64,000 nt of DNA from a virus (Duplodnaviria > Heunggongvirae > Uroviricota > Caudoviricetes), in the IMG/VR virus record IMGVR_UViG_3300009941_000125, positions 31,540-95,539 of that record. The stretch is one strand, 5' to 3'. The notes beneath the pieces are model-generated. The model saw nothing but the letters and a program-made list of their open reading frames with translations, ran no database searches and was not told the origin of the DNA. Below, piece after piece: positions 8,489 to 45,169 of the stretch; the first letter of the stretch is position 1, and every line of letters starts with the position of its first letter. A program made the position numbers and the translations under genes.

Positions 8489-8683
8489 TTACTTACTAAC
8501 TGTTTGTGAAAATAACAATCGGCATAATATTAATAAACCTAACGCTTCAAGAAGCGAAATTGCTCTTAATCCAAAAATACTAGGCATTAATCCATTCCAT
8601 AAAAATTGAATCGCGAAAGGAAATAGCAATAAAATAAGAACCATAAGACCTAAACCTAAAATTCCACCAATAACATCATTCAT
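8489..8683 (-). CDS. Small hydrophobic membrane protein.
   Basis: 64 aa with two predicted TM stretches. Confidence 0.35.
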   Translation of the reverse strand: MNDVIGGILGLGLMVLILLLFPFAIQFLWNGLMPSIFGLRAISLLEALGLLILCRLLFSQTVSK

Positions 8684-9257
8684 TTTCCCACTCTCCTTTA
8701 CTTGACTTTCTATACAAAATTTGATTACTTGAACCTCTAAACTTGAGATTCAGATCTTGCCTGGCTTGAACGAAGGGTCCATCTACTATTACATCCACAA
8801 TATCCTTGATGTCTTGCGGTATATCTTTGAAAAGATCGCCCGTATAAAGCCAAATCTTCTTTCCTTTTTCTTTTGCCCATTGGCTTATTGCTTTTACCGC
8901 TTGTGGTTGTAATAATGGTTCACCTCCAGATAAAATTATCCAATCTACCCAATCAATTAATCTTGTTAAATAATCTGTAATAGCTTTATAGTCTAACCAA
9001 AAACCTCTTTCCCATTGTAATTTAGCTACTTCTGGATTATGGCAACCTTTACAATGCTTATCGCAACCTTGAAACCAAATAATTGCTGCTAAGCTTTCTG
9101 CATCTTGCAATGACTCTGTAATTCCTGCTATCCTAAACATAACATTTTCTTCTGTAAAATTTTTATCTTTAGGCTCTGGAACTCTTAACTTTTGTGCGTA
9201 CTCTTTGAAAGAAACTTTCTTTGTCATTGATCGTCGTCCTCTATTAAATGTCTCCAT
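8676..9257 (-). CDS. nrdG: Anaerobic ribonucleotide reductase activating protein, a radical-SAM enzyme.
   Basis: 193 aa with WFQGCDKHCKGCHN (CxxxCxxC) and a GGEPLL glycine-rich SAM motif. Confidence 0.85.
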   Translation of the reverse strand: METFNRGRRSMTKKVSFKEYAQKLRVPEPKDKNFTEENVMFRIAGITESLQDAESLAAIIWFQGCDKHCKGCHNPEVAKLQWERGFWLDYKAITDYLTRLIDWVDWIILSGGEPLLQPQAVKAISQWAKEKGKKIWLYTGDLFKDIPQDIKDIVDVIVDGPFVQARQDLNLKFRGSSNQILYRKSSKGEWENE

Positions 9258-9502
9258 GATTCAATTTTATTGCCGTGAAAAACTTCTTCTACTTGACAAC
9301 TGATAAAATATGCTGATTCTTTTCGTAACATTTCAAAATAATCAATATATTCCTCTATAGTATCAGGAAAATCACTATAATCAATAATATCTTTATAAAT
9401 GAATAAATGCCCGCTGTACTCTGCGACATGAGATATACAAACATTATGATTAATAATGTCGCAAAAAATATCAATGTATGCATCATTTAATCTTGGTTCC
9501 AT
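9224..9502 (-). CDS. hypothetical protein
   Basis: 92-aa ORF. Confidence 0.4.
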   Translation of the reverse strand: MEPRLNDAYIDIFCDIINHNVCISHVAEYSGHLFIYKDIIDYSDFPDTIEEYIDYFEMLRKESAYFISCQVEEVFHGNKIESWRHLIEDDDQ

Positions 9503-9509
9503 ATATAAC

Positions 9510-9689
9510 TCACTTCTCTATAATTACTTCTCTTAATTGATATAAGCCATCATCTTCGTCTCTTTCGCTAAGAATCATTTTAATTTTGTAATCTTCTAAA
9601 TTAAGTTGTCTTAAAACGCCGCCATCTAAATCAACAATCCCTATTATCTTTTTATTGAAGCCTTCTTTTAATGTAAAAAAACATCTCAT
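9510..9689 (-). CDS. Small hypothetical protein.
   Basis: 59-aa ORF from manual translation (MRCFFTLKEGFNKK...); below the track cutoff. Confidence 0.3.
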   Translation of the reverse strand: MRCFFTLKEGFNKKIIGIVDLDGGVLRQLNLEDYKIKMILSERDEDDGLYQLREVIIEK

Positions 9690-9711
9690 TTTTAACTTTC
9701 TTTATATTTTT

Positions 9712-9784
9712 AGCCGAGAGAAGGACTTGAACCCTCAACCGATTGATTACAAATCAATTGCTCTTCCAATTGAGCTATCCCGGC
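9712..9784 (-). tRNA. tRNA-Thr(UGU)
   Basis: 73-nt cloverleaf on the minus strand: GCCGGGA-TA-GCTC-AATTGGAA-GAGC-A-ATTGA-TTTGTAA-TCAAT-CGGTT-GAGGG-TTCAAGT-CCTTC-TCTCGGC-T. All stems pair and the anticodon is TGT. Confidence 0.9.
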
Positions 9785-9867
9785 GTAAGATATAATAACT
9801 ATCATATTTAACACGATAGTGTGTCTGGTGTCACCCGGGTGTTGTCTGAATAACAACCTATAAGACT

Positions 9868-11850
9868 CTAAGAGTCTCTATTCCATCCTCTACTTGTCTT
9901 TTTACAATCATTACAAAAAGTAAACTCAGGACTAATTACTAATTGAGCGCACTGGGTATTATCCCATACCTTCTTTATTATATTTTCAATACCTTTAGGA
10001 TGAGGTTTTTGCTCTCCTAAAAATATATGCGTTATAGCTCCTGATTCTATTAACGGATTAAACCTTGCTTGACCCACAATCCTATCGATTATGGAAATTT
10101 CGGCGTTCGCGGCGTAATGCACAGAATTAGTATAATAAACCACACCACTATCCAAGCTACCTCTGACATAATCCTTAGCCTCCTTAAAAGCATGCAAATC
10201 AACTTTTGCTAATCTATAAGCTGCGCTTTCGGCGGGGCTTTCTTCGAGTGTAACTTTGAGTTTGTTTTCTTTTCCTAATTCTTTAGCTTTAAGATACATG
10301 GAACTAACAAGCTTTAATCCTAATTTATAAGATTCTTCGTCTTCGTGTAATTGCTTACCTGTGATTCTCTGTATACATTCATTTAATCCAATAATACCAA
10401 TAATATAAGTAGCTGCCTCTAAATCAACATAAGGTCTACCATCTTTAGCCTTCATACCAATTTGCCAAAGGGGTAATCCTTCTTCCATTAACCAACCAAT
10501 AAATCTTTTTTTCTGTAAATGAGCTTTCATAGCAATATCCATAGTTCTCATAACTTCTTTTACAGTTTTATCGTAATTTCCTTCAGCTCTATATGCAGCT
10601 TGAGGAAGATTTATTGATACATTTTGAAAGCCACAAAATCTCATTGATTCTGGATGTTCGATCATATAATTATCATCAATAACAGTTCTTAATCTACAAC
10701 ATGCAGCTAAAGTAACTTCATCTCTATCAAATACAAAATAAGGAGATCCATTCTCGGAAGCAATTTCACAAGCAAATGCAAATAATTTATATTGTTCTTT
10801 ATCTGTAAATGTTTCTGCACTTATATGAAAATCACATTTAGGAAAAGAAAAGACTCTTCCATAACAATCACCTTCTCGCCATACTTCTAACATTGCTTTT
10901 GCAAACATTTGAGCTTCTTTTTCAAAATCTCCATATGTTTCTTTTAAATACTTTCCACCAGGACCTATTGCTTTAATATTTTTAAGATAACTGGGAATAC
11001 CAGTGTGAATATTAAAATCTAAAAATAAGGTTTGCCCACCTCTACTAAAAGCATTCTGACTTGCTGAAAAAATTAAATGCTGAGCTTCTTGTTTCATTCT
11101 TTCAAAGGAAAGTCCTCGCACTAATGGTGCATAGAAAATATTAACATAACCAATTCCTAGCGCTCCTGCGTAATAAGCTTGCATAGAAGCTAGAAAAGTA
11201 TTTAAATGCCCTGTCAAAGTTCTTGCGTGACTTGCTGGCTTACTAGCCGAATTAAGATTCTCTAATTCTAAACCATATTTCTTAATATACTCCAAAGAAT
11301 GAGAACTACAATAAACTCTAGTTATATAACCTAAATCGTGTAAATGTACTTTACCTGTTAAATGAGCTTCAGCTACTTCTTTAGAAAATACTCTGCTTAA
11401 TGCATACTGCTTGAATGCTGCTTCAGAAATTGCTAAACTAACTGCTTCAGGGTTATTCGCCGAAATATTACTATTCTCAGATGTCTTACTAAAGATATAT
11501 TGTTCTAAATCATAAGTAGGGATACCTAAGACTTGTTGTTTCCTTAGCTTTCCATTTAATCCTTTTTCAAATAAAACATCATCAATAATACTACGAATTG
11601 TTCCTGTACTAATATTTTTTATTTCAGTCGCAAAGATTCTCGTTTCAACTTCAGTCGCAATAGCTCTAGCCTCTTTCATATCTAATCCAGCTTCTTCCTC
11701 TAATGATTCGATAACTTTCTTTTTATCCCAATCACTAAGCATTCCCTCAGAAAGAGAAGATACTAGTAAACTTAAATCTGTTGTGTCGTTTGAAGAAGCT
11801 TTGTTCTTCTTGAAAACTTTAATTGTCATTCTGCTCCCTTTCCAATCCAA
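9868..11850 (-). CDS. nrdD: Anaerobic (class III) ribonucleoside-triphosphate reductase; the main body lacks the glycyl-radical C-terminus.
   Basis: 660 aa with an ATP-cone-like N-terminus and a large NrdD barrel. It ends ...FTFCNDCKKTSRGWNRDS just after the first CxxC. No second CxxC or RVxGY follows in any frame downstream. Confidence 0.9.
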   Translation of the reverse strand: MDWKGSRMTIKVFKKNKASSNDTTDLSLLVSSLSEGMLSDWDKKKVIESLEEEAGLDMKEARAIATEVETRIFATEIKNISTGTIRSIIDDVLFEKGLNGKLRKQQVLGIPTYDLEQYIFSKTSENSNISANNPEAVSLAISEAAFKQYALSRVFSKEVAEAHLTGKVHLHDLGYITRVYCSSHSLEYIKKYGLELENLNSASKPASHARTLTGHLNTFLASMQAYYAGALGIGYVNIFYAPLVRGLSFERMKQEAQHLIFSASQNAFSRGGQTLFLDFNIHTGIPSYLKNIKAIGPGGKYLKETYGDFEKEAQMFAKAMLEVWREGDCYGRVFSFPKCDFHISAETFTDKEQYKLFAFACEIASENGSPYFVFDRDEVTLAACCRLRTVIDDNYMIEHPESMRFCGFQNVSINLPQAAYRAEGNYDKTVKEVMRTMDIAMKAHLQKKRFIGWLMEEGLPLWQIGMKAKDGRPYVDLEAATYIIGIIGLNECIQRITGKQLHEDEESYKLGLKLVSSMYLKAKELGKENKLKVTLEESPAESAAYRLAKVDLHAFKEAKDYVRGSLDSGVVYYTNSVHYAANAEISIIDRIVGQARFNPLIESGAITHIFLGEQKPHPKGIENIIKKVWDNTQCAQLVISPEFTFCNDCKKTSRGWNRDS

Positions 11851-12081
11851 TGTTATTGTGCTTTTTGTTATAGCAATCTTTACAAACCCAATGTCTGCTA
11901 TCTTTACTTTTCCATATTACCTTTGTAAATCTATTACAAGATGGGTTAGAACACCTATACCCATTTTCGGTTTTTATTAAATACACGTTTCTTTTCATTT
12001 CTTCTCTTTTAAATAAAAAATATTGCCGGTGTTTTAGATAATTAAATACCTAGGCCACCGGCTCACCTAATTAACTTAAAA

Positions 12082-12303
12082 CTAAGCCAATGTTGTACTC
12101 TTCCAAGCGGAACCATTATAGACAGACAAAACATTTGTACCTGGAGTGAAATACATAGAACCAGCGACTGGAGTCCCTGGAATAACGTCAGAAAGAACTA
12201 ACATTGCTTTCCCGTCAGTATCGTAATCACGAATACCTAGTGGAAGACCTTTACCAAAACCGTCATAGTAACATTGATAAGTTGTATCAACTGTTGCACC
12301 CAT
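12082..12303 (-). CDS. Hypothetical protein; Gly/Thr/Ser-rich, with a fibre-tip-like composition.
   Basis: 73-aa ORF followed by a GCCGGTG...CACCGGC hairpin plus T-run. Confidence 0.4.
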   Translation of the reverse strand: MGATVDTTYQCYYDGFGKGLPLGIRDYDTDGKAMLVLSDVIPGTPVAGSMYFTPGTNVLSVYNGSAWKSTTLA

Positions 12304-12365
12304 TTTAAACTCACCTTCCTTTATTGTTTATTACTTAACTATTAAATACTTAAACTAAATTTAAT

Positions 12366-13220
12366 TTATATTGTTGCACTAATATTATCTAAACATTTAA
12401 CTACATTTAACTTTATATCACTTTCCCAAAAACGTAATACTTTCCAACCCATAGTAGTTAAAGCTTTAGTTACTTTTTTATCCTGATTCTTTCCGAATGG
12501 ATAATTATGCCAGTAGTTACCATCTACATAAATAGCTATTTTCTTTTCAGGATTGGCTATATCAATTGAAGTAAACCTTTCTGGATACTCATCTTGAAAA
12601 CCATTCCATAAATTATTATCTTGCATTGCTTTCCGTAATAATCTATGAGGTAAGGTATTAGTTATTTTTAAAAGTTTTCCTTCAGCATGAAGCTTTATCA
12701 TTCTTTCTCTTAATTTAGCAACATCTTTTAAATTTCTTTCTTTAGTTCTTTCAGAAACCCTCATTAAATGTGGATGGTCTTTTTTTGTCATTCCTTTCCA
12801 ATATCCACCACAAAACCAAAGTCGTCCATATTTTTTTATCATCGTCTTCTGTCGCTTTACTTCGCATTCATTAATTTTTCTATCCGTTTCTCTTGTTTTA
12901 TCTTTATTCCATGCACTATGTCCTTTAATCCATAAGTTAGTACGCGATTGTCCTTTATTTGAACATTGTTTACTACAAAAAACCTTTTTACTTGAAATAC
13001 GCACAATAAAAACTTTATTACAAATTAAACATTTTCTTTTTTCTTTTAAAACCGTTTCTCTTTTATCCCAACTTAAAACTGATCTACATTTACAACAACA
13101 AGTTTTTTTATTTGAATTTGATTTCTTTTTAAATGTTTTATCACAAATTACACACTTAGAATCTTTCTCTATTATTGTACTTTTCCCTTTATTCCAAGGA
13201 ACATTTCCTTTCTTAACCAT
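12366..13220 (-). CDS. Free-standing homing endonuclease (Zn ribbons plus Vsr/DUF559-like nuclease domain); paralogue of 3993..4607.
   Basis: 284 aa with several CxxC pairs. C-terminal IAIYVDGNYWH...WKVLRFWESD matches the Vsr/DUF559 core and is organised like the 204-aa ORF. Confidence 0.6.
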   Translation of the reverse strand: MVKKGNVPWNKGKSTIIEKDSKCVICDKTFKKKSNSNKKTCCCKCRSVLSWDKRETVLKEKRKCLICNKVFIVRISSKKVFCSKQCSNKGQSRTNLWIKGHSAWNKDKTRETDRKINECEVKRQKTMIKKYGRLWFCGGYWKGMTKKDHPHLMRVSERTKERNLKDVAKLRERMIKLHAEGKLLKITNTLPHRLLRKAMQDNNLWNGFQDEYPERFTSIDIANPEKKIAIYVDGNYWHNYPFGKNQDKKVTKALTTMGWKVLRFWESDIKLNVVKCLDNISATI

Positions 13221-13284
13221 ACTTATACCTCCTTAATAGGTATATAAGGGCCAATCGATTAAGGCGATCAGCCCATTAATTATA

Positions 13285-14835
13285 TCACCAGTTTCTGCAA
13301 AATGCAGGACTTGCAACTTGTAATGAATCCGCAAAGATCGCTAATGCTGTTGCATCTGCTAAATCCTTACTTCCTCCCATTGGATGGTCGATCTTCTTAT
13401 TAGTAATTAAGCTTAGTGCTAGTAATTCTTCTACTAGCAAATTTGTATATTTACAATTAACGACTTTCAGCTTACCCCTATTTATCAAATCTTTTGCCGT
13501 ATCGTAAACTTTCTTACCTTTATCACAACTATACTTATTCTCTGTAGGGATTTGAGCCTTTGTAAGAACTTGCTTCATATCTGCTGATTGAAAAGAATCA
13601 GTTAAAACCATTCTAATGTTAAACTGTCTCTGCTTCAATAAGTAAATAAGAGCTCTTATATCTTCGAAATCAATCTCTCCACCTTTTGGAGCTTCCCAAG
13701 TTTTTAATAAATCAACAATAATATAATAATCTTTCTTATCTTCTCCAAACTCTCTATGGCACATAGCTAATCCAGCTCTATCATGTTTTAATGCTAAATC
13801 TAAACCAATATAATAATTAAGCCCTTTGCCAAAGAATGAATTTTCTAATCTTTCAACAATACCTTGTGCCCAAGGATTATGTAACTCAGAATCAACAATT
13901 GCTCTTACCCTATTCTCATCAGCAAAATAAGCGTCTTTAGCTTTAGGAGGCATACAACAATACTTAGCTGCCCATTCTTTAGGATCTAATTTTCTTTCAT
14001 CTTCAAAATCTTCTTCGTTTGAATATGGATTAAATTCCCAAGTCTTTGCAAACTCTGTATAGACGTCTGGTCTTCTTAAACCTTCTTCATATTTTTGAAG
14101 GATAAAATCACTCTCAAATCTAGGATAACTAATCATTACAATTTTACCCGTCTTAGGAAACCTTGACTTAACAGAAGATTTAGCCATATTGTACAAGTAA
14201 TCAGCGCTTTGTTTACTTCTTAATGACTTTCCTCTCAATTCTGCATTGGTCTTAAATGCCGCGATTTCATCTAATACACAAGAGAATAAGTTATAACCTT
14301 CCATACCTTCTGCTTCACTATGTCCAGATACAACATTAATATTGTTAGGGAATTGAACTTCTCCTGCTAAAACTTTACACCCTAATCTTTTAAAAATGTT
14401 CTTTCCTACAGTCTTAAAGGTTTCAAAGTAAACCGAGTTAGCTTGCTCTGCGTTTACCGCAACGTTTAAGATTGTAATTGGTAATCCTAAATCTATACCC
14501 GTATAATCAGCTGGCGGACCTTCTAATGCTAATCTGTATGCAAATCTATGATTAGCCAAACTAATCATTAAATCCTTACCTCCACCTTTTCCTACAACAA
14601 CTACATATTCTTTGTAAGGGTTATCTTCAACAGATAAGTTATCTAAAGCTATTAACAACTTTGCTTGCTTTGGGCTGATCTTCTCTAATCCTAAATAGTC
14701 TTTAGAAAAAATAAATGTATCTAAATCTACTGGTTTCTTTTCAAGAAAATTAGCATTAACGGTCTTTATTTTTTCTTCGAACTCTTTTAGTTCTTTGCTT
14801 TTTAGGAGACCGTCGATAAAACTCTCTACATTCAT
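13285..14835 (-). CDS. Terminase large subunit.
   Basis: 516 aa with an N-terminal P-loop-like GKGGGKD and a Walker-B-like VLDEIAAF, plus a C-terminal nuclease-like region with conserved acidic residues. Confidence 0.7.
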   Translation of the reverse strand: MNVESFIDGLLKSKELKEFEEKIKTVNANFLEKKPVDLDTFIFSKDYLGLEKISPKQAKLLIALDNLSVEDNPYKEYVVVVGKGGGKDLMISLANHRFAYRLALEGPPADYTGIDLGLPITILNVAVNAEQANSVYFETFKTVGKNIFKRLGCKVLAGEVQFPNNINVVSGHSEAEGMEGYNLFSCVLDEIAAFKTNAELRGKSLRSKQSADYLYNMAKSSVKSRFPKTGKIVMISYPRFESDFILQKYEEGLRRPDVYTEFAKTWEFNPYSNEEDFEDERKLDPKEWAAKYCCMPPKAKDAYFADENRVRAIVDSELHNPWAQGIVERLENSFFGKGLNYYIGLDLALKHDRAGLAMCHREFGEDKKDYYIIVDLLKTWEAPKGGEIDFEDIRALIYLLKQRQFNIRMVLTDSFQSADMKQVLTKAQIPTENKYSCDKGKKVYDTAKDLINRGKLKVVNCKYTNLLVEELLALSLITNKKIDHPMGGSKDLADATALAIFADSLQVASPAFCRNW

Positions 14836-15106
14836 TTTGTTTTTGTCCTACTACTATAAATATTGCTTCATTAACATCTAAATTCAACGCTGGCAAAACT
14901 TGAATTCCTTCTATTGTAAACTCTTGACAGCTTTCTTTAGAAAAGGTACTAATTACTAAATAATCTAAAAATATATCCTTTACTCTATTAAAGAAACCTT
15001 GTCCACAAAAACAAACAATATGCGGATACTCATATCTTGTTTTTAAATCTAGAAGAGTTTTATGAAATAATTCAAAATTAACTTTATTAAGATTCTTTAC
15101 TTTCAT
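14756..15106 (-). CDS. Hypothetical protein; its 3' end overlaps the terminase start.
   Basis: 116-aa ORF with an 80-nt overlap, so the basic tail may not be translated. Confidence 0.35.
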   Translation of the reverse strand: MKVKNLNKVNFELFHKTLLDLKTRYEYPHIVCFCGQGFFNRVKDIFLDYLVISTFSKESCQEFTIEGIQVLPALNLDVNEAIFIVVGQKQNECREFYRRSPKKQRTKRVRRKNKDR

Positions 15107-15596
15107 CTTTTAACAACTCTTTAACTTTTTTTACACACTCATCAACCGACATTGTATCTGTATGAATCATTAAATCTGGGAATCTTGGTTCTTCATATGG
15201 ATCGCTTATACCTGTAAAATGGGGAATCTCTCCTGTAATTGCTTTTGCATATAAACCTTTAGGGTCTCTTCTCTTACACTCATCAATAGAACACTTAACA
15301 TAAACAATCTTTACATCTTCAACTTTTTTCTGTACTGCTTGTCTTGTTTCTTCATAGGGTGAAATGAAAGAACAAATAATAGTTTCAAAGAATGGTGAAA
15401 GTATCTTAACTAAATAAGCTGCTCTTCCAACATTAGTATCTCTTTCTTTCTTACTAAACCCAATAGGATAAAACATATTACGAATAACATCACCGTCTAA
15501 ATTAATACATGATTCACCTAAATCTTTTTGTAACGCTTTAGCAATGGTCGTTTTTCCTGAAGCGCTTAATCCAGTCATCCATATCACTTTTGCCAT
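15087..15596 (-). CDS. cysC: Adenylylsulfate (APS) kinase.
   Basis: 169 aa with P-loop WMTGLSASGKTTIA, LDGDVIR and FSKKERDTNVGR, which are the canonical CysC motifs. Confidence 0.85.
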   Translation of the reverse strand: MAKVIWMTGLSASGKTTIAKALQKDLGESCINLDGDVIRNMFYPIGFSKKERDTNVGRAAYLVKILSPFFETIICSFISPYEETRQAVQKKVEDVKIVYVKCSIDECKRRDPKGLYAKAITGEIPHFTGISDPYEEPRFPDLMIHTDTMSVDECVKKVKELLKDESKES

Positions 15597-15668
15597 CTTT
15601 TACCTCCAAAACTTTACAAGTATAAAACCCTATAATAAATGAAAGAATTATTATTAATATAATATAAA

Positions 15669-16430
15669 CTATTTGCATAAAAGAATATATAATGTATAAC
15701 TCCCTAATATAAAAGTTCCTATACCAATAGTAAATCTTAAAAATTTATCATTAATTTTTTTAACACTAAGAGCCGCTAAGGGAGTAGCACAAAGTGCCCC
15801 AATTGTTAAATAAGGAGCTAATGTCCAATCAACATTAAAATTAGTCATTAACATATAACAAATAACTCCAATTAAACAAGTCAATCCTTCTGCCCAAGTA
15901 GTAATCCCTATTGCTTGTTTAGCTTTTCCTCCAACTAGCAATTGCCCTGCCGTCATTACCGGCCCATATCCTCCTGCGCTAATTCCTTTGTTAAACGATG
16001 CCAATAGGCCAATACCAATTATTTTTTTAAAAGAATATTTAAATGTTTTGTTAAGTGTTGTTAGTACAAGAATTCCCATTGACAAAACCATTCCACTTAT
16101 ATACAATTTTACAAAAAACTTTGGAATTGATGTTGCTATAAATACAGCTGCTATTGTTCCAATAATTCCACATATTCCCAAAATAGTAGCTAACCTTAAA
16201 TCTTCTTTATCTATATTTCCTACTTTATGATGAAAAAAACCTCCAATTAAACCTGTACACAATTCAGAAACTAATATAGCAGGAACTATTTGTATGACAC
16301 TAAATCCCATTAATAAAAAAATTGGAGCTAAAACTGTTCCATATCCCATTCCTAATGTCGAATCCATATATTCCATTACAAAAGCCCATGCTACTAAAAC
16401 TAATCCTAAACCTAAAGCTAATTCAAACAC
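15669..16430 (-). CDS. TauE/SafE (DUF81) family anion permease.
   Basis: 253 aa and polytopic, with an internally repeated 4-TM architecture and Gly-rich helices typical of sulfite/sulfonate exporter-type permeases. Confidence 0.6.
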   Translation of the reverse strand: MFELALGLGLVLVAWAFVMEYMDSTLGMGYGTVLAPIFLLMGFSVIQIVPAILVSELCTGLIGGFFHHKVGNIDKEDLRLATILGICGIIGTIAAVFIATSIPKFFVKLYISGMVLSMGILVLTTLNKTFKYSFKKIIGIGLLASFNKGISAGGYGPVMTAGQLLVGGKAKQAIGITTWAEGLTCLIGVICYMLMTNFNVDWTLAPYLTIGALCATPLAALSVKKINDKFLRFTIGIGTFILGSYTLYILLCK

Positions 16431-16450
16431 TACTCCTCCTATCTATTTCC

Positions 16451-16645
16451 TTAAACTTTTCTTCTTGGCATTCTGCCTACGGGACCTCTTCCTCTGCCTA
16501 CTCCTAAACCTCTACCATTACCGCCACTTCTAATTTTAGCTCCAGGACATTCAGTTGAATTTCCTTTAGCATCAACACAATTTCCTAATCCTCTTCCTGT
16601 TAAAGGGCCCTTTCCGTCTGGACCTGTTCCATTAAATCTTGGCAT
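16451..16645 (-). CDS. Small Gly/Arg-rich protein of the MPRxxGTGPxGxGPxTGRG type.
   Basis: 64 aa. The N-terminal pattern resembles a conserved uncharacterised small-protein family of anaerobes. Confidence 0.4.
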   Translation of the reverse strand: MPRFNGTGPDGKGPLTGRGLGNCVDAKGNSTECPGAKIRSGGNGRGLGVGRGRGPVGRMPRRKV

Positions 16646-16823
16646 TTTTCTCCCCCTTTCTACACTTTATTATTTTTTCAACTACATCTTTTAAACATGC
16701 TGGAACTTGATTTAATTTTCTATGAAAAGCAATGCAATCACAGCAAATTCCTTTTTTATCACACTCTATTAAACAATTACATTTACTTAAATTTCTTTCA
16801 TAATTCTTACACTTGTTTGTCAT
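16632..16823 (-). CDS. Small Cys-rich protein.
   Basis: 63 aa with about 10 Cys in CxC/CC arrangements. Confidence 0.35.
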   Translation of the reverse strand: MTNKCKNYERNLSKCNCLIECDKKGICCDCIAFHRKLNQVPACLKDVVEKIIKCRKGEKNAKI

Positions 16824-17202
16824 TTAATTTTTCTCGTATCTTAGTTGCTGAAATAGACTCTGTTTCTGCATCTAGTTTAATCTTTTCTGTTGACCAGCCA
16901 ACTTTTCTACCATGGACTACTTTTAAAATATTAGGTAAAAGAATTACCTTAACTCTGTTTTCTTTAATCTCTTTTTCAAAAGCTTTTGCAATCATTACAG
17001 TCCTATCGGAATAATTATGAGGATTATTATCTTTTCCATCTGAAGCTCTTAATCCAATACAAATATTATCTCCTCTATCTAAAACTGTCCTCATTAACTT
17101 AATATGTCCTTCATGTAATGGTTGATAACGACCAATAAATAAAGACCATTCCTTTTCATCAGGTTCATTCAATTCTAACATCATTAATAATTTGTCATCC
17201 AT
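16807..17202 (-). CDS. Cytidylyltransferase-fold nucleotidyltransferase (TagD/PPAT/NMNAT-like).
   Basis: 131 aa with FIGRYQPLHEGHIKLM, which carries the (H/T)xGH signature, and a size typical of glycerol-3-phosphate cytidylyltransferase-like enzymes. Confidence 0.6.
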   Translation of the reverse strand: MDDKLLMMLELNEPDEKEWSLFIGRYQPLHEGHIKLMRTVLDRGDNICIGLRASDGKDNNPHNYSDRTVMIAKAFEKEIKENRVKVILLPNILKVVHGRKVGWSTEKIKLDAETESISATKIREKLNDKQV

Positions 17203-17207
17203 TTACT

Positions 17208-17942
17208 TCACTCCTCATATTTTAATTCTTTTAGTAAATCTATAAACTTTGGTTCTGTTAAACACTCCGCTAAATATTCTTTATTAAAATCATCTAGCTT
17301 CTTTTTGTCTTTCCATTTATATACTGAATTAGCATGTAATGGTTGAACTACTCCATTATATGATAAATCTTTTCTATGGGTTGCATATCTAAACCAATTC
17401 TTTAATTCATCAACAAAATCTTCTTCAATGTGCTCACAAATTTTCTTAACAGTAGACTCATAATTTAAAATTAAATCTTCATATTTAATAGTTAACATTG
17501 TAGGATGGTCTTTATACTCTAATCCATTCCTTACATGTCCTACCCATCTACCCCATTTAGTATAAGGTCTATGATAGGGAACTCTTGGATGAATTGATGT
17601 AACTACATCTCTACCGTCTCTGATAATATGAATTAACTTTAAATTATTCTCGAACTGCTCAAGTATTTCAGGAATATAAGCCACATTGTTTGGAGTCTTT
17701 TCAAGCCAACGTACAGCATTAGGTTTCTTTTTAATCTCTGCCTTACGCTCATTAAGTCTATCCTCATAGTCTTTCTTCATTGTTGTAAAGTTCTGATTCT
17801 TAGCGCAATAGTAAGGAACCCAAACCTCTTTCGGTATAGCAAATATCTTTGGATGAGCAGATAAAATAGAAGATAAAAGAGTAGTCCCTGATCGTTGACA
17901 CCCCATTAATATAATAGGACATTTTTTCCACTCTTTTACCAT
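17208..17942 (-). CDS. PAPS-dependent sulfotransferase.
   Basis: 244 aa with the 5'-PSB motif PIILMGCQRSGTTLL and the 3'-PB motif RDGRDVVTS. Confidence 0.8.
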   Translation of the reverse strand: MVKEWKKCPIILMGCQRSGTTLLSSILSAHPKIFAIPKEVWVPYYCAKNQNFTTMKKDYEDRLNERKAEIKKKPNAVRWLEKTPNNVAYIPEILEQFENNLKLIHIIRDGRDVVTSIHPRVPYHRPYTKWGRWVGHVRNGLEYKDHPTMLTIKYEDLILNYESTVKKICEHIEEDFVDELKNWFRYATHRKDLSYNGVVQPLHANSVYKWKDKKKLDDFNKEYLAECLTEPKFIDLLKELKYEE

Positions 17943-17946
17943 CTAT

Positions 17947-18435
17947 CTATTCTTTCCCTTCCTTTTCAAATAAGTTTAACTGTTCTGCCCCTAATTCTTC
18001 TAAACTAGGTTTGTTATCTGTTAAGCTAACTATTCCAACACCTATTCTTTTTTTAGCAACAATCCAAAATAACCATGTTTGAGGATCGTATACTCCCCTT
18101 AATTGCCAACCTGTTCTTTCTGCTATAACTACCTCTTTACCTTCTTCTTCAATATCATCAATCAACTGCTGGGGAAACTTTTTATCTTGGTTTGGTAAAG
18201 GAGTTCCTTTCATAAAATTAATTTGAGTACCTTCTTCAACTCTATATGGACATGGTTTGTTTAACAATTTTGATTCAATATAACTATTTTCAATTGTTGT
18301 AAATAAATCAACAACCATAGGATCGTTTGTAAATACAGAAGATTTCATTTCATCTGGTGATATAACTACAACTAATTTATCACAAGTTATTGTTGATGCT
18401 TCGTCTTTATCTAATTTTGCTTTATATCTTTTCAT
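17947..18435 (-). CDS. hypothetical protein
   Basis: 162-aa ORF. Confidence 0.5.
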   Translation of the reverse strand: MKRYKAKLDKDEASTITCDKLVVVISPDEMKSSVFTNDPMVVDLFTTIENSYIESKLLNKPCPYRVEEGTQINFMKGTPLPNQDKKFPQQLIDDIEEEGKEVVIAERTGWQLRGVYDPQTWLFWIVAKKRIGVGIVSLTDNKPSLEELGAEQLNLFEKEGKE

Positions 18436-23877: not shown

Positions 23878-24075
23878 TTAATTGATTTCAACTACAGTGT
23901 CAAGACACATATCACATAAATAATCTTCAGTCTTAAGAAGTTTTTCTGCTTTCTTTTTTGCATCTTTTAAACTTTTGGCCTCTATTGTTACACATTTCTC
24001 TTCATCATAAGGAACGTAATAAGCATCAAATTCTTTTAATGTCTTTTTCTTTACTTTCTTAATTTTTCTTATCAT
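23878..24075 (-). CDS. hypothetical protein
   Basis: 65-aa ORF. Confidence 0.35.
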   Translation of the reverse strand: MIRKIKKVKKKTLKEFDAYYVPYDEEKCVTIEAKSLKDAKKKAEKLLKTEDYLCDMCLDTVVEIN

Positions 24076-25174
24076 CTTTTACCTCCTTTATAATCTTTAT
24101 AATTCTTTTAGCAGCTTTCCCATCTCCGTAAGGATTGTTTTTATTACTTATTTTATCATATTCTTCTTTATTAGTTAATAACAATGTTGTCATATCAACA
24201 ATCTTAAAAATATCAGTTCCTACTAATTTACATGTTCCGGCTTCTATTCCTTCTGGCCTTTCTGTAGTTTCTCTTATTACTAAAACTGGTTTACCTAAAG
24301 ATGGAGCTTCTTCCTGAACCCCTCCTGAATCAGTAATTATTAAATACGATTGATTCATCAAATTAACAAAGTCAATATAATTATATGGCTCAACAAGTTT
24401 TATATTTTTAATCTCACTTAATTCTTTTAAAAGCATATTTCTTACTTTTGGATTTTTATGCATAGGAAGAACTATTAAATCCTCTTTAAATCTACTTGCT
24501 ATTTCTTTTAAAGCAAAACAAGTTTGTTTCATTGGTTTCCCTAAGCTTTCTCTTCTATGAGTTGTTACTAAAATAATTCTTTTATTTTTAGGAAAACCTA
24601 AATCTTTTTTATATTTCTTAAGAATATAAAATAAAGCATCAATTACTGTATTACCAACTAAATATATAGTATTTGTAGTAACTTCGGAATTTAAAAGATT
24701 ATTTAATGCTTCCTTAGTAGGAACAAAATTAACATCTGCTATTTGTGTTATTAATCTTCTATTAATTTCTTCAGGAAAAGGATTATACTTATTATCTGTT
24801 CTTAATCCTGCTTCAACGTGAACTACTTTTATCTTTAAATAAAAACAAGTTAATGCTGTTATAAATGCTGTTGTTGTATCTCCTTGAACAAACACATAAT
24901 CTGGTTTTTCTTGTTCAAGAATTGGTTTTAGTCTATGTAAGCATCTCTCAGAAATATCAAATAATGTTTGATTAGACTTCATAATATCTAAATCTAAATC
25001 AACATTAATACCAAATGATTTTAATACTTGATATACCATTTCTTTATGCTGCCCAGTTGATATTACTTTAACCTCTAATTTTTTATCTTTTCTTGCTTCA
25101 AGAATAATTGGAGCCATTTTAATTGCTTCTGGCCTAGTACCAAATATAAATACTAATTTATTTTTATTATTCAC
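24059..25174 (-). CDS. wecB: UDP-N-acetylglucosamine 2-epimerase (non-hydrolysing).
   Basis: 371 aa with FGTRPEAIKMAP, PDYVFVQGDTTT, HVEAGLRT and PFPEEINRRL, in close collinearity with WecB/MnaA. Confidence 0.9.
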   Translation of the reverse strand: MNNKNKLVFIFGTRPEAIKMAPIILEARKDKKLEVKVISTGQHKEMVYQVLKSFGINVDLDLDIMKSNQTLFDISERCLHRLKPILEQEKPDYVFVQGDTTTAFITALTCFYLKIKVVHVEAGLRTDNKYNPFPEEINRRLITQIADVNFVPTKEALNNLLNSEVTTNTIYLVGNTVIDALFYILKKYKKDLGFPKNKRIILVTTHRRESLGKPMKQTCFALKEIASRFKEDLIVLPMHKNPKVRNMLLKELSEIKNIKLVEPYNYIDFVNLMNQSYLIITDSGGVQEEAPSLGKPVLVIRETTERPEGIEAGTCKLVGTDIFKIVDMTTLLLTNKEEYDKISNKNNPYGDGKAAKRIIKIIKEVKDDKKN

Positions 25175-25425: not shown

Positions 25426-25614
25426 TTATTTCATTAATACTCCAATAATTAAAAAAACAATACAAACCATCATCCACAACAATAGTGGAACATAATTACT
25501 GCCAACAATATAAATAATAGGAATATTTAAAAGACACCCGCCAATACCCCCTAATCCTCCATAAATAAAAAAATATTTCATTATTTTCCTCCTTAATACT
25601 TTCCTTTTGCCCAA
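25426..25614 (-). CDS. Small membrane protein.
   Basis: 62 aa with two hydrophobic helices. Confidence 0.3.
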   Translation of the reverse strand: MGKRKVLRRKIMKYFFIYGGLGGIGGCLLNIPIIYIVGSNYVPLLLWMMVCIVFLIIGVLMK

Positions 25615-26372
25615 AAATTATTATGTAATTCTATTAAAAGCTTATTTGCTTTATCTTTATCAGGATTATCTTTTAATTTACTTCTAACATAAGATTCTTC
25701 TGCTAAAGCAAAAAGCCTCTTAGCTTCAAATTTTACTTCTTCTAACTTCCATTCACCTAATTTAATAGCTAATAATTGTTGTTTATCTGATTTTCTAAAA
25801 ACATTTAATTCCCCTGTTGTTAAAAATTCTATCCCCATTTTTAATAACCTAATTAAATGTGCTGCATTTTTACAATCATACCCAAACTTTTTAACAAGCT
25901 CCATTCTTTTTTTGCCCATGTAGCCTTCTTTATTAAATTTTTCCATTTGTCTAAGTTGCCCCCAAGCATACCCTACAAAGCTATGGTAACAACTTCTTGC
26001 AGTAAACATATCTCTATTATCGATTAAGATTTGCCCTTCTTCTCCTATATCCGTATAATCATTTTTTCTTAGCCAGAGCAAGCACAAAACATTGGGATTT
26101 CCTTTTAGCGCTAGATGAACAAACTTTTTAAGTGAGTAATATAAGACATCCCACTCGTCTTTTTGTTTTTCATAATGATCTTTTTGCTTTAACCCAATAA
26201 TATATTCAGGGGGAGGAATATAAACTCCAAATATATCTTTATCGTCAATATGGTCTTTTACATAAACTCCATGAGAAATAGATCCTCTATAACCTTCTAA
26301 AATAATATTATTTTTAAATTGAAAGTCTTTAAATAAATTATAAGGTACGCTCATCATTAATTTCCTCCTCAA
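25593..26372 (-). CDS. Pol-beta-superfamily nucleotidyltransferase; possibly an RNA-repair-associated type.
   Basis: 259 aa. GYRGSISHGVYVKDHIDDKDIFGVYI gives the GS...D.D signature of minimal nucleotidyltransferases, and a helical C-terminal domain follows. It lies 4 kb from rtcB. Confidence 0.55.
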   Translation of the reverse strand: MRRKLMMSVPYNLFKDFQFKNNIILEGYRGSISHGVYVKDHIDDKDIFGVYIPPPEYIIGLKQKDHYEKQKDEWDVLYYSLKKFVHLALKGNPNVLCLLWLRKNDYTDIGEEGQILIDNRDMFTARSCYHSFVGYAWGQLRQMEKFNKEGYMGKKRMELVKKFGYDCKNAAHLIRLLKMGIEFLTTGELNVFRKSDKQQLLAIKLGEWKLEEVKFEAKRLFALAEESYVRSKLKDNPDKDKANKLLIELHNNFWAKGKY

Positions 26373-28765: not shown

Positions 28766-29689
28766 TCATTTTACTAAATAATACTCACTAAATTTATTCA
28801 TAATAGTATCTACTACTTCTTTTTTGATATGTCTATTGTCTTCTTGATATGCATCTGTAAAATATTCTTTTACAATCTCATAAGATGGAAAATAAAATAG
28901 ATTTTTATCCTCTTTATTTTCTCTAACTAACTCATCGACTGCAACTCTTAATATAGATTTAGAAACACAATTAGCAGTAATACATGAAACTGGTCTAAAT
29001 GTTGCTATTAATGGAACTGGAGATAGCGTAAATACTATTTTAGCATTTGATTTGAATCTTCTTATAATACTATAAATTCTTTTTAAATTATCTAAATTTT
29101 CTTGATAAGTACTTATTCTAAATCCGTGTTTTTTAGGATCAAACATATTCTTTGGAATTGCTCTCCAAAATACATCATTAGTTTCTTTATTATACCAAAT
29201 TTCTGATAAACCTAATGTCATAATAAAGACGTCTGTCTTTTTAAATAATTCATATGTATCTAATCTTATTTCTTCTAAAGGCTTATTTTCTCTTTTTTCA
29301 TCATCGAACCAAATAGCATCTTTAAACTTTCTATTTAAAAACGCCCATTCAAATTGTTGTCTCATTACAAATGTATTATTAATCCCTGCCCCTTGAGTAA
29401 CAATATAAGAACCTAATTTTTTATCCTTTCCTAAAACATTATACCTTTTTCTAGATAAATATTTTCTTATTTCCATAGCAAAACAACTACCAAATGCTGT
29501 AATAGATGTTTGTTTATCAATAAAAGGTTTATCTGGCATCCACCCATAAAGTACATATTGATCTAATGCTTCTTCTTCTTTTAAATTAACTTTATGGGCA
29601 ATAAAATTACAAGTTTCTCCCCTATACCATGTTTCGTTTGCTCCTCTACTTCTATCTTTTCCTTGTTTATACCAAATATTTTTACTCAT
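28766..29689 (-). CDS. GSCFA-family protein (uncharacterised; SGNH/GDSL-like fold suspected).
   Basis: 307 aa carrying the family-defining motif TAFGSCFA near the N-terminus. Confidence 0.5.
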   Translation of the reverse strand: MSKNIWYKQGKDRSRGANETWYRGETCNFIAHKVNLKEEEALDQYVLYGWMPDKPFIDKQTSITAFGSCFAMEIRKYLSRKRYNVLGKDKKLGSYIVTQGAGINNTFVMRQQFEWAFLNRKFKDAIWFDDEKRENKPLEEIRLDTYELFKKTDVFIMTLGLSEIWYNKETNDVFWRAIPKNMFDPKKHGFRISTYQENLDNLKRIYSIIRRFKSNAKIVFTLSPVPLIATFRPVSCITANCVSKSILRVAVDELVRENKEDKNLFYFPSYEIVKEYFTDAYQEDNRHIKKEVVDTIMNKFSEYYLVK

Positions 29690-30282: not shown

Positions 30283-31482
30283 TTAACCCTTTATAACAGC
30301 AATCGGTTCTAATTTAACTAAAATATCAACCAAATCTTCTTGTTGCTTCATTACCTCATCAATATTTTTATATGAGCTCGGTGCTTCATCTAAATCTTTC
30401 TGAGTTCTTACCCCATGAATAATTCCTTTGTTATTTAGCTTTTTAAGTTCCTCTTTAAGACTTAGCTCTCTAACAGCTTGCTTTCTCCCCATACACCTAC
30501 CAGCTCCATGAGAACAACTCATAAAACTAAGAGATTCCCCTTTTCCTTTAACTATATAAGAAGCTGTTCCCATTGATCCAGGAATAATACCAATAGTGTT
30601 TTCTCTTGCTAGAGTCGCCCCCTTTCTATGTACCATAACGTTCTCTCCAAAATGACTTTCCATTGTAACGTAATTATGAGCAATATTTATAACATCTACA
30701 GAATATTCATAAGAAGTTATATTAGAAAATAAACTCATATTTTCTTCAAAAATGTCTAGTATTCTGCACATCATTAGATGCCTATTAGCCAAAGCAAAAT
30801 CAACACAATATTGCATTTCTCTTAAATAAGTTTTAGCCTCTTCAGTTTCTAAAGGAAGAAAAGCTAATTCCCATTCTTTAGGAACTTTTGAATGCCACCT
30901 CTCATTTAATTTTATCGCAATATCATTATGATGTTTAGCTACTCTATATCCTAGATTTCTACTCCCTGAGTGAAGCATAATCCAAATATGACCATCTGAT
31001 CCTTTAAGAATATCTATAAAATGATTCCCTCCTCCGAGGGTTCCTAATTGCTTTAAAGCTGAATTATACTGCTCCGAAATAACGGGAAAATCGTGAGAAC
31101 AAAAATCATGCTTAATTGGTGCTTCTGGCATTAAACTTTCATCTTGTTTTTCCTTTTGGTGGTTCCCTCCGACAGGTATAACTTTTCTAATTCCTTTCAT
31201 TATCTTTTTAAGTGTTTCAGTATCTATCTCAGTTAAAGATGTCTTAACTGCACACATCCCACACCCAATATCAACGCCAACTGCATTAGGAATTACTACC
31301 CTTTTCGTAGCAATAACTCCACCAATTGGCATTCCATAACCTTGATGAGCATCTGGCATTAAAGCTACGTGCTTATGAATAAAAGGTAGATTAGCCAAGT
31401 TTTTGGCTTGCTTTAAAGCGCCTTCTTCAATATCTTTAACCCATGATTTTATTGGTTTATTTTCTGTTGTTATTACTTCCAT
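30283..31482 (-). CDS. rtcB: RNA 3'-phosphate/2',3'-cyclic phosphate ligase RtcB.
   Basis: 399 aa with NAVGVDIGCGM, HQGYGMPIGGV, GGGNHFIDIL, HSGSRNLG and SCSHGAGR, which are the hallmark RtcB metal and GMP-His motifs. RBS is AAAGGAGGGGAAA. Confidence 0.9.
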   Translation of the reverse strand: MEVITTENKPIKSWVKDIEEGALKQAKNLANLPFIHKHVALMPDAHQGYGMPIGGVIATKRVVIPNAVGVDIGCGMCAVKTSLTEIDTETLKKIMKGIRKVIPVGGNHQKEKQDESLMPEAPIKHDFCSHDFPVISEQYNSALKQLGTLGGGNHFIDILKGSDGHIWIMLHSGSRNLGYRVAKHHNDIAIKLNERWHSKVPKEWELAFLPLETEEAKTYLREMQYCVDFALANRHLMMCRILDIFEENMSLFSNITSYEYSVDVINIAHNYVTMESHFGENVMVHRKGATLARENTIGIIPGSMGTASYIVKGKGESLSFMSCSHGAGRCMGRKQAVRELSLKEELKKLNNKGIIHGVRTQKDLDEAPSSYKNIDEVMKQQEDLVDILVKLEPIAVIKG

Positions 31483-31550
31483 TTTCCCCTCCTTTATTTA
31501 ATTTATTAATAATACAGAGCAGGAAAACGGTTTATTTGGCGTTTTTTATG

Positions 31551-36074: not shown

Positions 36075-36773
36075 TTATTCTAAAGCAGTAATTGTGCCAA
36101 CAACATCTTCAATACATCCTGTACCGTGATTACAAGATATAACAGTATAAGTATAAGATTGGCCGCCGACAATAGCTGAATCATTAAAGTTAATATCTGT
36201 TAATGACCCTGGATTTGGTAAACCACTAGCATATACTGTATGTCTAATTCCGTAATCAGTTCTAATAATTTGATATAAGTAAGCTTGAGGCTCTCCTGAA
36301 TATACAGCAAACGATACTTTAATAATAGGATAGCCATAAGTGGGATGAGCTGTAGCAACTAAACAAGGATATAAAATATGAGATGGAAGAGGCTCAACAA
36401 TTATTGTAGTTGTAGTAGTACTAGTTGTAGTAGTTGTGATTATACTAGTAGTTGTAGTTGAGGTAGTCGTTGTTGTGGTTGTAGAAACAATGGTCGTAGT
36501 TGTTGTGGGTAGCGTCGTAATAGTTGTGCTAGTAGAACTAGTTGTTGATGTTGAAATAGAAATATTCGTCGTTGACGTTGTAGTTGATGTGCTAGTTGAT
36601 GTATTTACTGTAGTAGTTGTAGAAAATAACGTCGTTGTGGTTGTACTTGTTGTAGAGATAGACGTTGTAGTCGTACTTGTTGTAGTTGTTAAACTTTCAG
36701 AAACTGTTTGACCACACCCAATAATAAAACTTGTTAATACAATTAAAATTAATATAAAAAATAATTTTTTCAT
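36075..36773 (-). CDS. Lipoprotein with a Thr/Ser-rich mucin-like linker and a C-terminal beta-rich domain.
   Basis: 232 aa with a signal peptide and lipobox (FIIGC), then about 110 residues of STTTT repeats, then a globular C-terminus. Confidence 0.65.
   Translation of the reverse strand: MKKLFFILILIVLTSFIIGCGQTVSESLTTTTSTTTTSISTTSTTTTTLFSTTTTVNTSTSTSTTTSTTNISISTSTTSSTSTTITTLPTTTTTIVSTTTTTTTSTTTTSIITTTTTSTTTTTIIVEPLPSHILYPCLVATAHPTYGYPIIKVSFAVYSGEPQAYLYQIIRTDYGIRHTVYASGLPNPGSLTDINFNDSAIVGGQSYTYTVISCNHGTGCIEDVVGTITALE
36410..36720. repeat. Imperfect tandem 9-15-nt repeats (ACTACAACT/AGTAGTTGT units) encoding the poly-Thr linker.
   Basis: Seen directly; the plus-strand poly-Val ORF 36436..36711 is its mirror artefact. 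Confidence 0.6.
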
Positions 36774-44739: not shown

Positions 44740-45169
44740 ATTTTCTCACTATTATTTCTGTTTCTTTCAATAAATCTCTAGCTAATTCATCATTATAATA
44801 TTCAATATAAACTATTTCTTTAATTTTAGCATTTATTAACATCTTAGTACACCAACAACATGGATGGGCAGAACAATATACTGTTGCACCCTCTGGATTG
44901 GTATGTTTTAATGCACATTGAATTAAAGCATTCATTTCGGCGTGAGACCCCCTACATAATTCCGATTGAGTACCGCTTTTTATATTTTGCTGTTGCCTTA
45001 AACACCCAACCTCGCTACAATGTCTTAATCCAGATGGAGCACCATTATACCCTGTGGATAATATCATATTGTCCTTAACAATTACAGCGCCAACTTTTCT
45101 TCTTAAACAAGTTGATTGGGTTGCCATTTCATTAACTATATTTATAAATAATTTATCTTTATTTTTCAT
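44729..45169 (-). CDS. dCMP deaminase (CMP/dCMP deaminase zinc-binding family).
   Basis: 146 aa with HAEMNAL and PCCWCTKML, the H(A)E...PCxxC zinc ligands. Confidence 0.85.
   Translation of the reverse strand: MKNKDKLFINIVNEMATQSTCLRRKVGAVIVKDNMILSTGYNGAPSGLRHCSEVGCLRQQQNIKSGTQSELCRGSHAEMNALIQCALKHTNPEGATVYCSAHPCCWCTKMLINAKIKEIVYIEYYNDELARDLLKETEIIVRKYEK

Follow-up and report, generated by a model that had tools for sequence, protein, structure and literature searches.

A phage gene cluster predicted to supply PAPS and to sulfate an acceptor, probably a glycan

Whether a phage can carry its own route to sulfated macromolecules is the question raised by a gene block at positions 15087-17942 (minus strand) of a 64,000-nucleotide stretch of viral DNA. 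This stretch, referred to as the window herein, comprises positions 31,540 to 95,539 of the IMG/VR record IMGVR_UViG_3300009941_000125. Sulfate on glycans and proteins influences the charge of cell surfaces, how receptors are recognised and how immunity is evaded, and to our knowledge no phage has been shown to make sulfated forms of either. The window itself is phage DNA. A large terminase gene (13285-14835), with a product 34% identical to Streptomyces phage terminases, is the next gene downstream of the block, and the window also encodes a DnaE-type polymerase, DnaB, primase, RecA, RuvC, an anaerobic ribonucleotide reductase and more phage proteins. An earlier note made from these letters had read the block as a phage-encoded sulfation module; we found its six open reading frames (ORFs) in place and profile searches confirmed the families, from which the function is predicted. 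We propose, with a probability of roughly 60%, that the block is a working sulfation operon of the phage's own, in which six or seven abutting genes point the same way, and that it would supply 3′-phosphoadenylyl sulfate (PAPS) and transfer its sulfo group, most probably to a glycan. Every functional statement made here is drawn from sequence, structure prediction and gene association.

The six ORFs abut or overlap, as judged from the ORF listing and the sequence context, and would be transcribed in the order sulfotransferase, nucleotidyltransferase, Cys-rich protein, Gly/Arg-rich DUF5320 protein, TauE permease and CysC. The first product (17208..17942, minus strand, 244 aa) matched both Sulfotransfer_3 (PF13469, E=6e-23) and Sulfotransfer_1 (PF00685, E=5e-18) in the profile subtyping that the earlier note had called for. 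Both PAPS-binding motifs quoted there are present, namely the 5′-phosphosulfate-binding loop GCQRSGTTLL at residues 14-23 and the 3′-phosphate-binding motif RDGRDVVTS at residues 108-116, together with an EKTP motif. Across 43 homologues, R17, S18, G19, R108, D109, R111 and S116 are invariant, and conservation is 90% or more at T20 and T21. The structure was predicted with a mean confidence (pLDDT) of 94.5, and the model found 113 PDB matches at E<=1e-3; the 50 listed were nearly all sulfotransferases, one being the SULT-fold retinol dehydratase. The best solved matches in this model-based search were sulfotransferases bound to PAP or PAPS, with the tyrosylprotein sulfotransferases TPST1/2 at a TM score of ~0.70 (18-21% identity) and CurM/OLS ST and heparan-sulfate 3-OST at ~0.57 among those listed. 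Matches to TPST at the sequence level spanned only the N-terminal PAPS loop. By family membership and predicted fold the 244-aa protein is a PAPS-dependent sulfotransferase, and the non-sulfotransferase P-loop family that the earlier note had allowed for was not borne out. Such genes are rare in cultured phages: tblastn of the window sulfotransferase against 50,697 cultured-phage records gave zero matches, and the base rate over two tblastn searches was 0 and 10 of these 50,697 records, a figure that describes cultured phages alone. The DNA of the block was not similar to any of the 50,697 phage records, and in PHROGs neither the sulfotransferase nor TauE nor CysC has an annotated family.

At the other end of the operon, CysC (15087..15596, minus strand, 169 aa) scored 174 bits with TIGR00455 against a cut-off of 138.7, and 153 bits with PF01583 against 21.1 (E=8e-45). 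Alignment placed the P-loop GLSASGKTT, LDGD, GFS..R..N..R and the lid RDPKGLY...FTG, all present, so that the textbook motifs noted earlier hold and the protein is predicted to be a canonical adenylyl-sulfate (APS) kinase. At other viral loci, most kinases that partner the nucleotidyltransferase (see below) are ~145 aa long and retain the P-loop, DGDxxR and GFS..R..N..R, with the lid absent. Pfam calls these partner kinases APS_kinase above cut-off and confirms APS_kinase+CTP_transf_like fusions. Kinase-nucleotidyltransferase fusions without a detectable sulfotransferase are found in cultured phages of the Sano, Salvo and Bacata types and in Clavibacter phage 33. In Xylella phage Sano (5584-6321 and 1794-2471 of locus L106) and Clavibacter phage 33, both Casjensviridae, the 245-aa fusion is annotated merely as 'kinase', as is its PHROGs family (phrog_10255). 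It lies among early genes, including an annotated cysteine dioxygenase and a MazG-like pyrophosphatase, and no sulfotransferase was found within 12 kb.

Between sulfotransferase and kinase stands the key component, a 131-aa protein (16807..17202, minus strand; PF01467, E=6e-10) with the motifs FIGRYQPLHEGH ... GRKVGW ... ISATKIR. Its homologues form a tight family of ~110 aa with the motifs FIGRYQPLHEGHIKL, GRKVGW and ISATKIR, and some of them carry an APS-kinase domain. The protein belongs to the HxGH nucleotidyltransferase superfamily (PF01467, TIGR00125), having (H/T)xGH after strand 1, a C-terminal ISxTxxR and a Rossmann-like fold, with Arg52 and Gly98-Arg99 as family-specific invariants. 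The nearest relative by both sequence and fold was archaeal nicotinamide mononucleotide adenylyltransferase (NMNAT), with a profile E of ~1e-11 over the first 73 residues, followed by NadM, TagD, NadR and PPAT. The earlier label 'TagD-like' is therefore replaced: TagD matches were weaker than those to NMNAT (E=0.003 with a single sequence and 2e-6 with a profile, over the first ~50 residues). Membership in the archaeal-type NMNAT family was likewise rejected, since TIGR01527 scored 40.4 bits against a cut-off of 181.2, with a further 46.5 against 127 in the TIGR01527/PRK01153 test, and only residues ~20-93 aligned rather than the full ~170-aa domain. All NMNAT, PPAT and TagD equivalog models fell far below their cut-offs. 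Archaeal-type NMNAT (NadM/MJ0541) and the viral protein share GRxQPxHxGH and ISxTxIR, whereas the latter has a core of ~105 residues that lacks ~60 C-terminal residues of NMNAT, has its own invariants and is accompanied by an APS-kinase partner in most lineages. Membership in the ATP sulfurylase families was also rejected, as judged by sequence and by QxRNPxHxxH and GRD/HAG for Sat (PF01747) or a PP-loop plus GTPase for CysD/CysN.

The evidence on the role of this small enzyme comes from the company that it keeps. A scan of IMG/VR found at least 580 stretches that encode the nucleotidyltransferase family, and the 80 loci fetched represent 43 non-redundant lineages, 25 of them with at least 5 kb on both flanks. 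Counting a kinase when it lay within 3 kb and on the same strand, an APS-kinase-family gene accompanied the nucleotidyltransferase at 75 of the 80 loci, in 40 of the 43 lineages and in 24 of the 25 well-flanked ones. The corresponding counts were 42, 24 and 16 for a sulfotransferase and 45, 21 and 16 for a DUF2061-like membrane protein. A HMMER scan of 1.84 billion representatives yielded 824 proteins of the family at E<=1e-10; the best 150 included 36 kinase-nucleotidyltransferase fusions, 24 in the reverse order and two fusions with DUF2061. On two phage-like contigs, L010 and L011 (59-62% identity), the nucleotidyltransferase sits beside CysC and sulfotransferases within larger clusters that also encode LicD, phosphoenolpyruvate (PEP) mutase and glycosyltransferases. 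Cellular genomes gave seven loci in 185,579 species, all in metagenome-assembled genomes (MAGs), with the kinase adjacent in five of the seven and a sulfotransferase as well in four of those five. MAGs with the module were assigned to Hodarchaeota (L095), Thermoplasmatales (L099), and Patescibacteria and Saccharibacteria (L098 and L100), and these archaeal and candidate-phyla-radiation (CPR) copies could be misbinned viral contigs or proviruses. No ATP-sulfurylase or PAPS-reductase family appeared in the tally of 25 families listed for the module's 149 nearest neighbours in viruses, and a motif search for Sat, CysD, CysN and CysH signatures found none in the window, which covers 64 kb of a ~113-kb contig. 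As judged from these neighbourhoods, the operon in the window is a variant of a module that is widespread and mostly viral, made up of sulfotransferase, APS kinase or APS-kinase-like protein, mini-nucleotidyltransferase and DUF2061 membrane protein. The comparison of related phages suggested in the earlier note thus came out in favor of linkage, with sulfotransferase, nucleotidyltransferase and CysC recurring together in L010 and L011 and in part in the closer relative L004.

Put in biochemical order, the permease would import or balance a sulfur oxyanion, most simply sulfate; the nucleotidyltransferase would convert ATP and sulfate to APS; CysC, by its family, would phosphorylate APS to PAPS; and the sulfotransferase, again by its family, would pass the sulfo group of PAPS to an acceptor. 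The membrane component, TauE here and DUF2061 elsewhere, would serve sulfate supply. Of these assignments, that of the nucleotidyltransferase comes from association only and would be a case of functional recruitment of a protein outside the Sat family. CysC needs APS, and the HxGH fold is the superfamily fold to which ATP sulfurylase belongs. Every natural fusion partner of APS kinase known to us is an ATP sulfurylase, as in animal PAPSS, Sat-CysC and CysNC. We suggest that the small enzyme forms APS because CysC requires it, because the known fusion partners are sulfurylases, because the mini-nucleotidyltransferase is a constant and often fused companion of the kinase, and because no canonical sulfurylase appeared by motif in the window or by family in the tally. 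A second substrate as tiny as sulfate would plausibly suit so small an enzyme. Extended to the whole family, the suggestion becomes tentative, a little short of even odds: the ~110-residue NMNAT-derived nucleotidyltransferase would be an unrecognised minimal class of ATP sulfurylase that makes up a viral mini PAPS synthase with an APS kinase, to which it is often fused. This synthase would often be anchored in the membrane through DUF2061 or paired with a TauE permease, and many phages would use it to sulfate host or virion glycans.

The remaining genes of the operon concern transport and, possibly, accessory functions. The TauE/SafE (TSUP, DUF81) permease that the earlier note had placed between kinase and sulfotransferase (15669..16430, minus strand, 253 aa) matched PF01925 at E=4.5e-27, scoring 95.7 bits against a gathering threshold of 32.6 over residues 13-245. 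Its cellular homologues are 50-59% identical, and an Rrf2 regulator precedes them in all three contexts; in one of the three, a second TauE, a Na/sulfate symporter and an APS kinase lie nearby. On the cellular contigs concerned (L101, L102/L103 and L104/L105), the Rrf2-family gene (148 aa; 144 aa in L104/L105) stands ~55-75 bp upstream, forming a two-gene unit across distant bacteria. This context fits a role with a sulfur oxyanion and says nothing about the direction of transport. TauE occupies the position that the DUF2061 membrane protein takes in other viral modules, where the two-helix DUF2061-like domain occurs alone, as an N-terminal fusion on 248-aa CysC proteins or fused to the nucleotidyltransferase; we found no functional literature on DUF2061. 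In L004, a DUF2061-like gene fills the slot that in the window holds the Cys-rich, DUF5320 and TauE genes, which suggests that these three replace DUF2061 in the phage studied here.

The two tiny proteins that had been noticed as Cys-rich and Gly-rich are real ORFs of the cluster, and the Gly-rich one is a DUF5320 protein (16451..16645, minus strand, 64 aa; PF17253, 3.4e-9; 38.2 bits against a cut-off of 27). It is rich in Gly and Arg, and DUF5320-like ORFs were seen near the viral module at only two other loci (L034 and L036). The 63-aa Cys-rich protein (16632..16823, minus strand), from a gene that overlaps both neighbours, has the pattern C-x9-C-x-C-x3-C-x6-CC-x-C-x3-H-x9-C and probably binds metal. 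It had no Pfam or NCBIfam family even at E<=10, so a resemblance to a named DUF was not borne out, and it weakly matched phrog_1382 (5e-4). Ribosome-binding sites (GGAGG) precede the permease and the kinase, and the permease starts with GTG. A 46-aa ORF with one hydrophobic helix (15538..15678, minus strand; known from the ORF listing, with zero matches in Pfam at E<=10 or NCBIfam) bridges these two genes and may be a real gene or a mere carrier of the CysC ribosome-binding site. Upstream of the sulfotransferase, a gene for a 162-aa protein (17947..18435, minus strand) ends with its stop codon 4 nt before the sulfotransferase ATG. Its product gave zero matches in Pfam (including E<=10), NCBIfam and PHROGs, and the gene also precedes the sulfotransferase in L004 (63% identity, dN/dS 0.31). 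It is possibly a specificity factor or an acceptor candidate, and its membership in the module is uncertain.

Could the block be a recent, non-functional passenger of host origin? Every part does have cellular homologues. However, the GC content of ~30% is uniform over the window, with the block equal to the rest of the phage, and the cluster is identical on five independent metagenome contigs. L004, with an 88%-identical sulfotransferase, keeps the order 162-aa gene, sulfotransferase and nucleotidyltransferase with intact ORFs, and dN/dS against it comes to 0.04 (sulfotransferase) and 0.14 (nucleotidyltransferase); a value for the Cys-rich gene would not be meaningful, as the L004 slot holds a different, DUF2061-like gene. 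Even the nearest cellular homologues reach no more than 46% identity for the sulfotransferase and 59% for TauE, the nucleotidyltransferase belongs to an essentially viral family, and the more distant L010 and L011 still hold sulfotransferase, nucleotidyltransferase and CysC together. The identical copies, the synteny, the strong purifying selection and the distant cellular homologues effectively refute a decaying or recent inactive insert, the outcome that the earlier note had named as fatal, and we regard it as extremely improbable. A better precedented reading takes CysC and the transporter as auxiliary metabolic genes that boost host assimilatory sulfate reduction to cysteine, which is how viral cysC is read in print (PMC10914622; bioRxiv 10.1101/2021.01.05.425418), and the TauE subfamily does occur in sulfur-regulon contexts in cells. 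This appears improbable here, as a PAPS-consuming sulfotransferase stands in the same operon and co-occurs across lineages, neither a CysH signature in the window nor a PAPS-reductase family in the neighbour tally was found, and the neighbours are glycan enzymes rather than cysteine-synthesis genes. A more serious alternative, unlikely yet weighty, concerns the nucleotidyltransferase, which might keep an NMNAT-like or other adenylyl- or cytidylyltransferase activity, for instance in NAD salvage or in activating glycerol-phosphate, a sugar-phosphate or another phosphorylated acceptor; a host ATP sulfurylase would then provide APS and the remaining operon would still sulfate. Several observations weigh against the pathway as we propose it. 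The best matches of the enzyme are archaeal NMNAT, NadM, NadR, PPAT and cytidylyltransferases, and no ATP sulfurylase was among the 60 matches listed for the family. A canonical sulfurylase may lie elsewhere in the genome, beyond the 64 kb of the window. The short, lid-less partner kinases of other viruses might differ in substrate, and the kinase half of the Sano-type fusions, which lack a nearby sulfotransferase, is weakly APS-kinase-like, fits better as a generic AAA_33 and also matches AAA_28, the NadR-kinase family, so this branch may have another function. A weak PnuC-like gene lies 5 kb away in L011. As to uptake, the best-known TauE proteins export sulfite or sulfonates, and sequence does not reveal direction. 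Against this alternative stand the equivalog scores (40 bits vs 181 for TIGR01527), the missing ~60 C-terminal residues, the co-occurrence with sulfotransferases and the APS-kinase-family partner in 40 of 43 lineages, with fusions in both orders, for which NadR-type and CoaE-type kinases are not the best matches.

With sulfation by the phage operon as the preferred reading, the acceptor must still be chosen, and the earlier note had listed a glycan, a nucleotide, a peptide and a hypermodified DNA base. For the cellular sulfotransferase homologues (38-46% identity), four of five neighbourhoods are glycan clusters and one is uninformative. Two share a conserved operon of two sulfotransferases, an ABC exporter and a GT1 glycosyltransferase; another has a flippase, GT2/GT4/GT9 and the STT3 oligosaccharyltransferase; and another has a second sulfotransferase beside Wzy and GT4. 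Around the viral module, glycosyltransferases of GT1/2/4/9, sugar-nucleotide enzymes and methyl- and carbamoyl-transferases predominate, joined by Sulfotransfer_2 proteins and 2-oxoglutarate (2OG) oxygenases. The homologue neighbourhoods make a glycan the most probable acceptor, whether it belongs to the host envelope or to a glycoprotein of phage or host. A protein or peptide, sulfated on tyrosine or hydroxylated residues of a virion fibre, a co-encoded small protein or the 162-aa protein, is a less probable target that we take seriously. The closest solved folds are tyrosylprotein sulfotransferases (TM ~0.70), which leaves room for a protein acceptor, and the viral module repeatedly has 2OG-Fe(II) oxygenases and, in some loci, collagen-repeat tail fibres close by. 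For bacterial operons that include PAPS synthetase, Iyer et al. (2010; PMC2938197) predicted that collagen-like and tail-collar proteins are first hydroxylated and then sulfated. Identity to TPST is only 18-21%, though, and the closest cellular homologues lie in polysaccharide or glycolipid clusters in four of five cases. The DUF5320 protein has no tyrosine, and the window encodes no collagen-like protein and few acidic-Tyr sites. Sulfate on a hypermodified DNA base or nucleotide seems very improbable: a block with thymidylate-synthase-like, deoxynucleoside monophosphate (dNMP)-kinase-like and Glf genes in the window does resemble a DNA-modification module, but it is 27 kb away, no viral sulfation module was linked to such genes, the sulfotransferase homologues lie in glycan clusters, and sequence and fold searches found no nucleotide sulfotransferase relative. 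From the list given earlier, the glycan is therefore the candidate that context favors, and the DNA base drops out for want of linkage.

The DNA-modification-like block (45159-48661, minus strand) consists of four overlapping genes right after the DnaE-type polymerase, encoding a thymidylate-synthase-like protein (PF00303, just 1.6e-21, possibly a pyrimidine hydroxymethylase), a 364-aa product, a protein resembling thymidylate/dNMP kinases and UDP-galactopyranose mutase (Glf). The set resembles a module for DNA hypermodification, possibly one that draws on galactofuranose. Surface-glycan genes are scattered through the window (24059-25174, 28766-29689 and 63226-63873) and encode the UDP-GlcNAc 2-epimerase WecB (3e-117), a member of the GSCFA family and a protein whose C-terminal domain is that of a phage depolymerase. 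A predicted 232-aa lipoprotein (36075-36773, minus strand) has a signal peptide with the lipobox IIGC, ~115 residues of near-pure Thr/Ser resembling a mucin-like stalk and a ~90-aa C-terminal domain; the two small proteins encoded on either side of it have a CKQCGKCCK motif in common. It is possibly a target of O-glycosylation or sulfation, or a superinfection-exclusion lipoprotein. Beyond the window, L010 (JGI 3300033148, 54 kb) has a phosphonate-type cluster beside its sulfation genes (12891-18153), with a cytidylyltransferase-PEP mutase fusion, a second PEP-mutase-like gene, a thiamine-pyrophosphate enzyme, an aminotransferase and two LicD genes, which implies, as far as gene content tells, that this virus decorates a glycan with both phosphonate and sulfate. 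On the marine viral contig L077 (1555-7467; also L055, L081 and L082), a 1970-aa tail fibre with collagen triple-helix repeats and a C-terminal endosialidase chaperone (Peptidase_S74) is encoded immediately upstream of glycosyltransferase-like, sulfotransferase, kinase, nucleotidyltransferase and DUF2061 genes.

Other genes of the window bear on the host. Because RecA and the Pol III alpha subunit are of bacterial type and Shine-Dalgarno sites are present, the evidence points to a bacterial host, and NrdD suggests that this host is anaerobic. NrdD and its radical-SAM activase lie at 8676-13220 with a tRNA-Thr in between, and a DUF559/HNH-like endonuclease gene (12366-13220) is inserted between terminase and NrdD. 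An RNA-repair pair, an RlaP-family nucleotidyltransferase and an RtcB ligase, lies within 25593-26372 and 30283-31482 with HD and metallophosphoesterase genes in between, and probably counters host defences that cleave tRNA.

The type of pathway, dedicated PAPS synthesis coupled to a sulfotransferase, is already known. In rhizobia, NodP/NodQ and NodH likewise set a dedicated sulfate-activation pair beside a PAPS sulfotransferase among glycan-decorating enzymes, in their case for Nod factor. NodPQ are homologues of CysD and CysN-CysC with a GTPase-driven sulfurylase, whereas the putative sulfurylase of the phage is a ~110-aa NMNAT-like protein, the system is viral and it has TauE or DUF2061 as a membrane component. 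RaxST, the tyrosine sulfotransferase of Xanthomonas oryzae, with RaxP/RaxQ has a Sulfotransfer_3/TPST-like fold and a dedicated PAPS supply in common with the phage operon, and differs in its canonical PAPS enzymes and in the RaxX peptide as acceptor, as opposed to the glycan context in the phage; we saw no RaxX-like precursor or peptidase-type exporter in the window. Animal PAPSS1/2 and bacterial or fungal Sat-CysC also fuse APS kinase to the maker of its substrate, and the viral family has both orders. Among phages, PF13469-type sulfotransferases are annotated in the genomes of cyanophages S-SKS1, S-SCSM1 and S-SRM01 and of OM43 phages, with a function called 'unclear' (PMC10580990). Each of them is a lone gene that has no PAPS-synthesis gene beside it, in contrast to the whole proposed pathway in one operon here. 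Viral cysC has been reported as an auxiliary gene of assimilatory sulfate reduction (Kieft et al. 2021, bioRxiv 10.1101/2021.01.05.425418; Chen and Banfield 2024, COBRA, PMC10914622), mostly in aquatic phage genomes and expressed in situ. Neither paper mentions sulfotransferases, whereas CysC of the window sits in a module with a sulfotransferase, a nucleotidyltransferase and a membrane protein. The earlier statement that phages are not known to sulfate macromolecules therefore stands for experiments, no function having been shown for a phage sulfotransferase or cysC, and falls for annotation, given the cyanophage sulfotransferases and viral cysC. Our literature search found no paper on phage sulfotransferase function or on this nucleotidyltransferase, and nothing on a cytidylyltransferase-like ATP sulfurylase.

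What is new is the complete operonic presence of the pathway in a phage, its membership in a widespread viral module and a non-canonical candidate for sulfate activation. A self-contained phage pathway of uptake, activation and transfer would join glucosylation and acetylation as a means of surface remodelling. It would also change how viral cysC is read, since many metagenome surveys count these genes as sulfur-assimilation helpers and their context argues for sulfation over assimilation. The partner enzyme is a candidate for a new sulfate-activating type, roughly four times smaller than the ATP sulfurylases known so far, which would matter to enzymology and to in vitro PAPS regeneration, and DUF2061 gains a testable context. 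If the tentative reading of the whole family is true, the pathway given for many viral 'cysC auxiliary metabolic genes' is mistaken, and sulfation would be a modification that phages commonly make and that has been overlooked.

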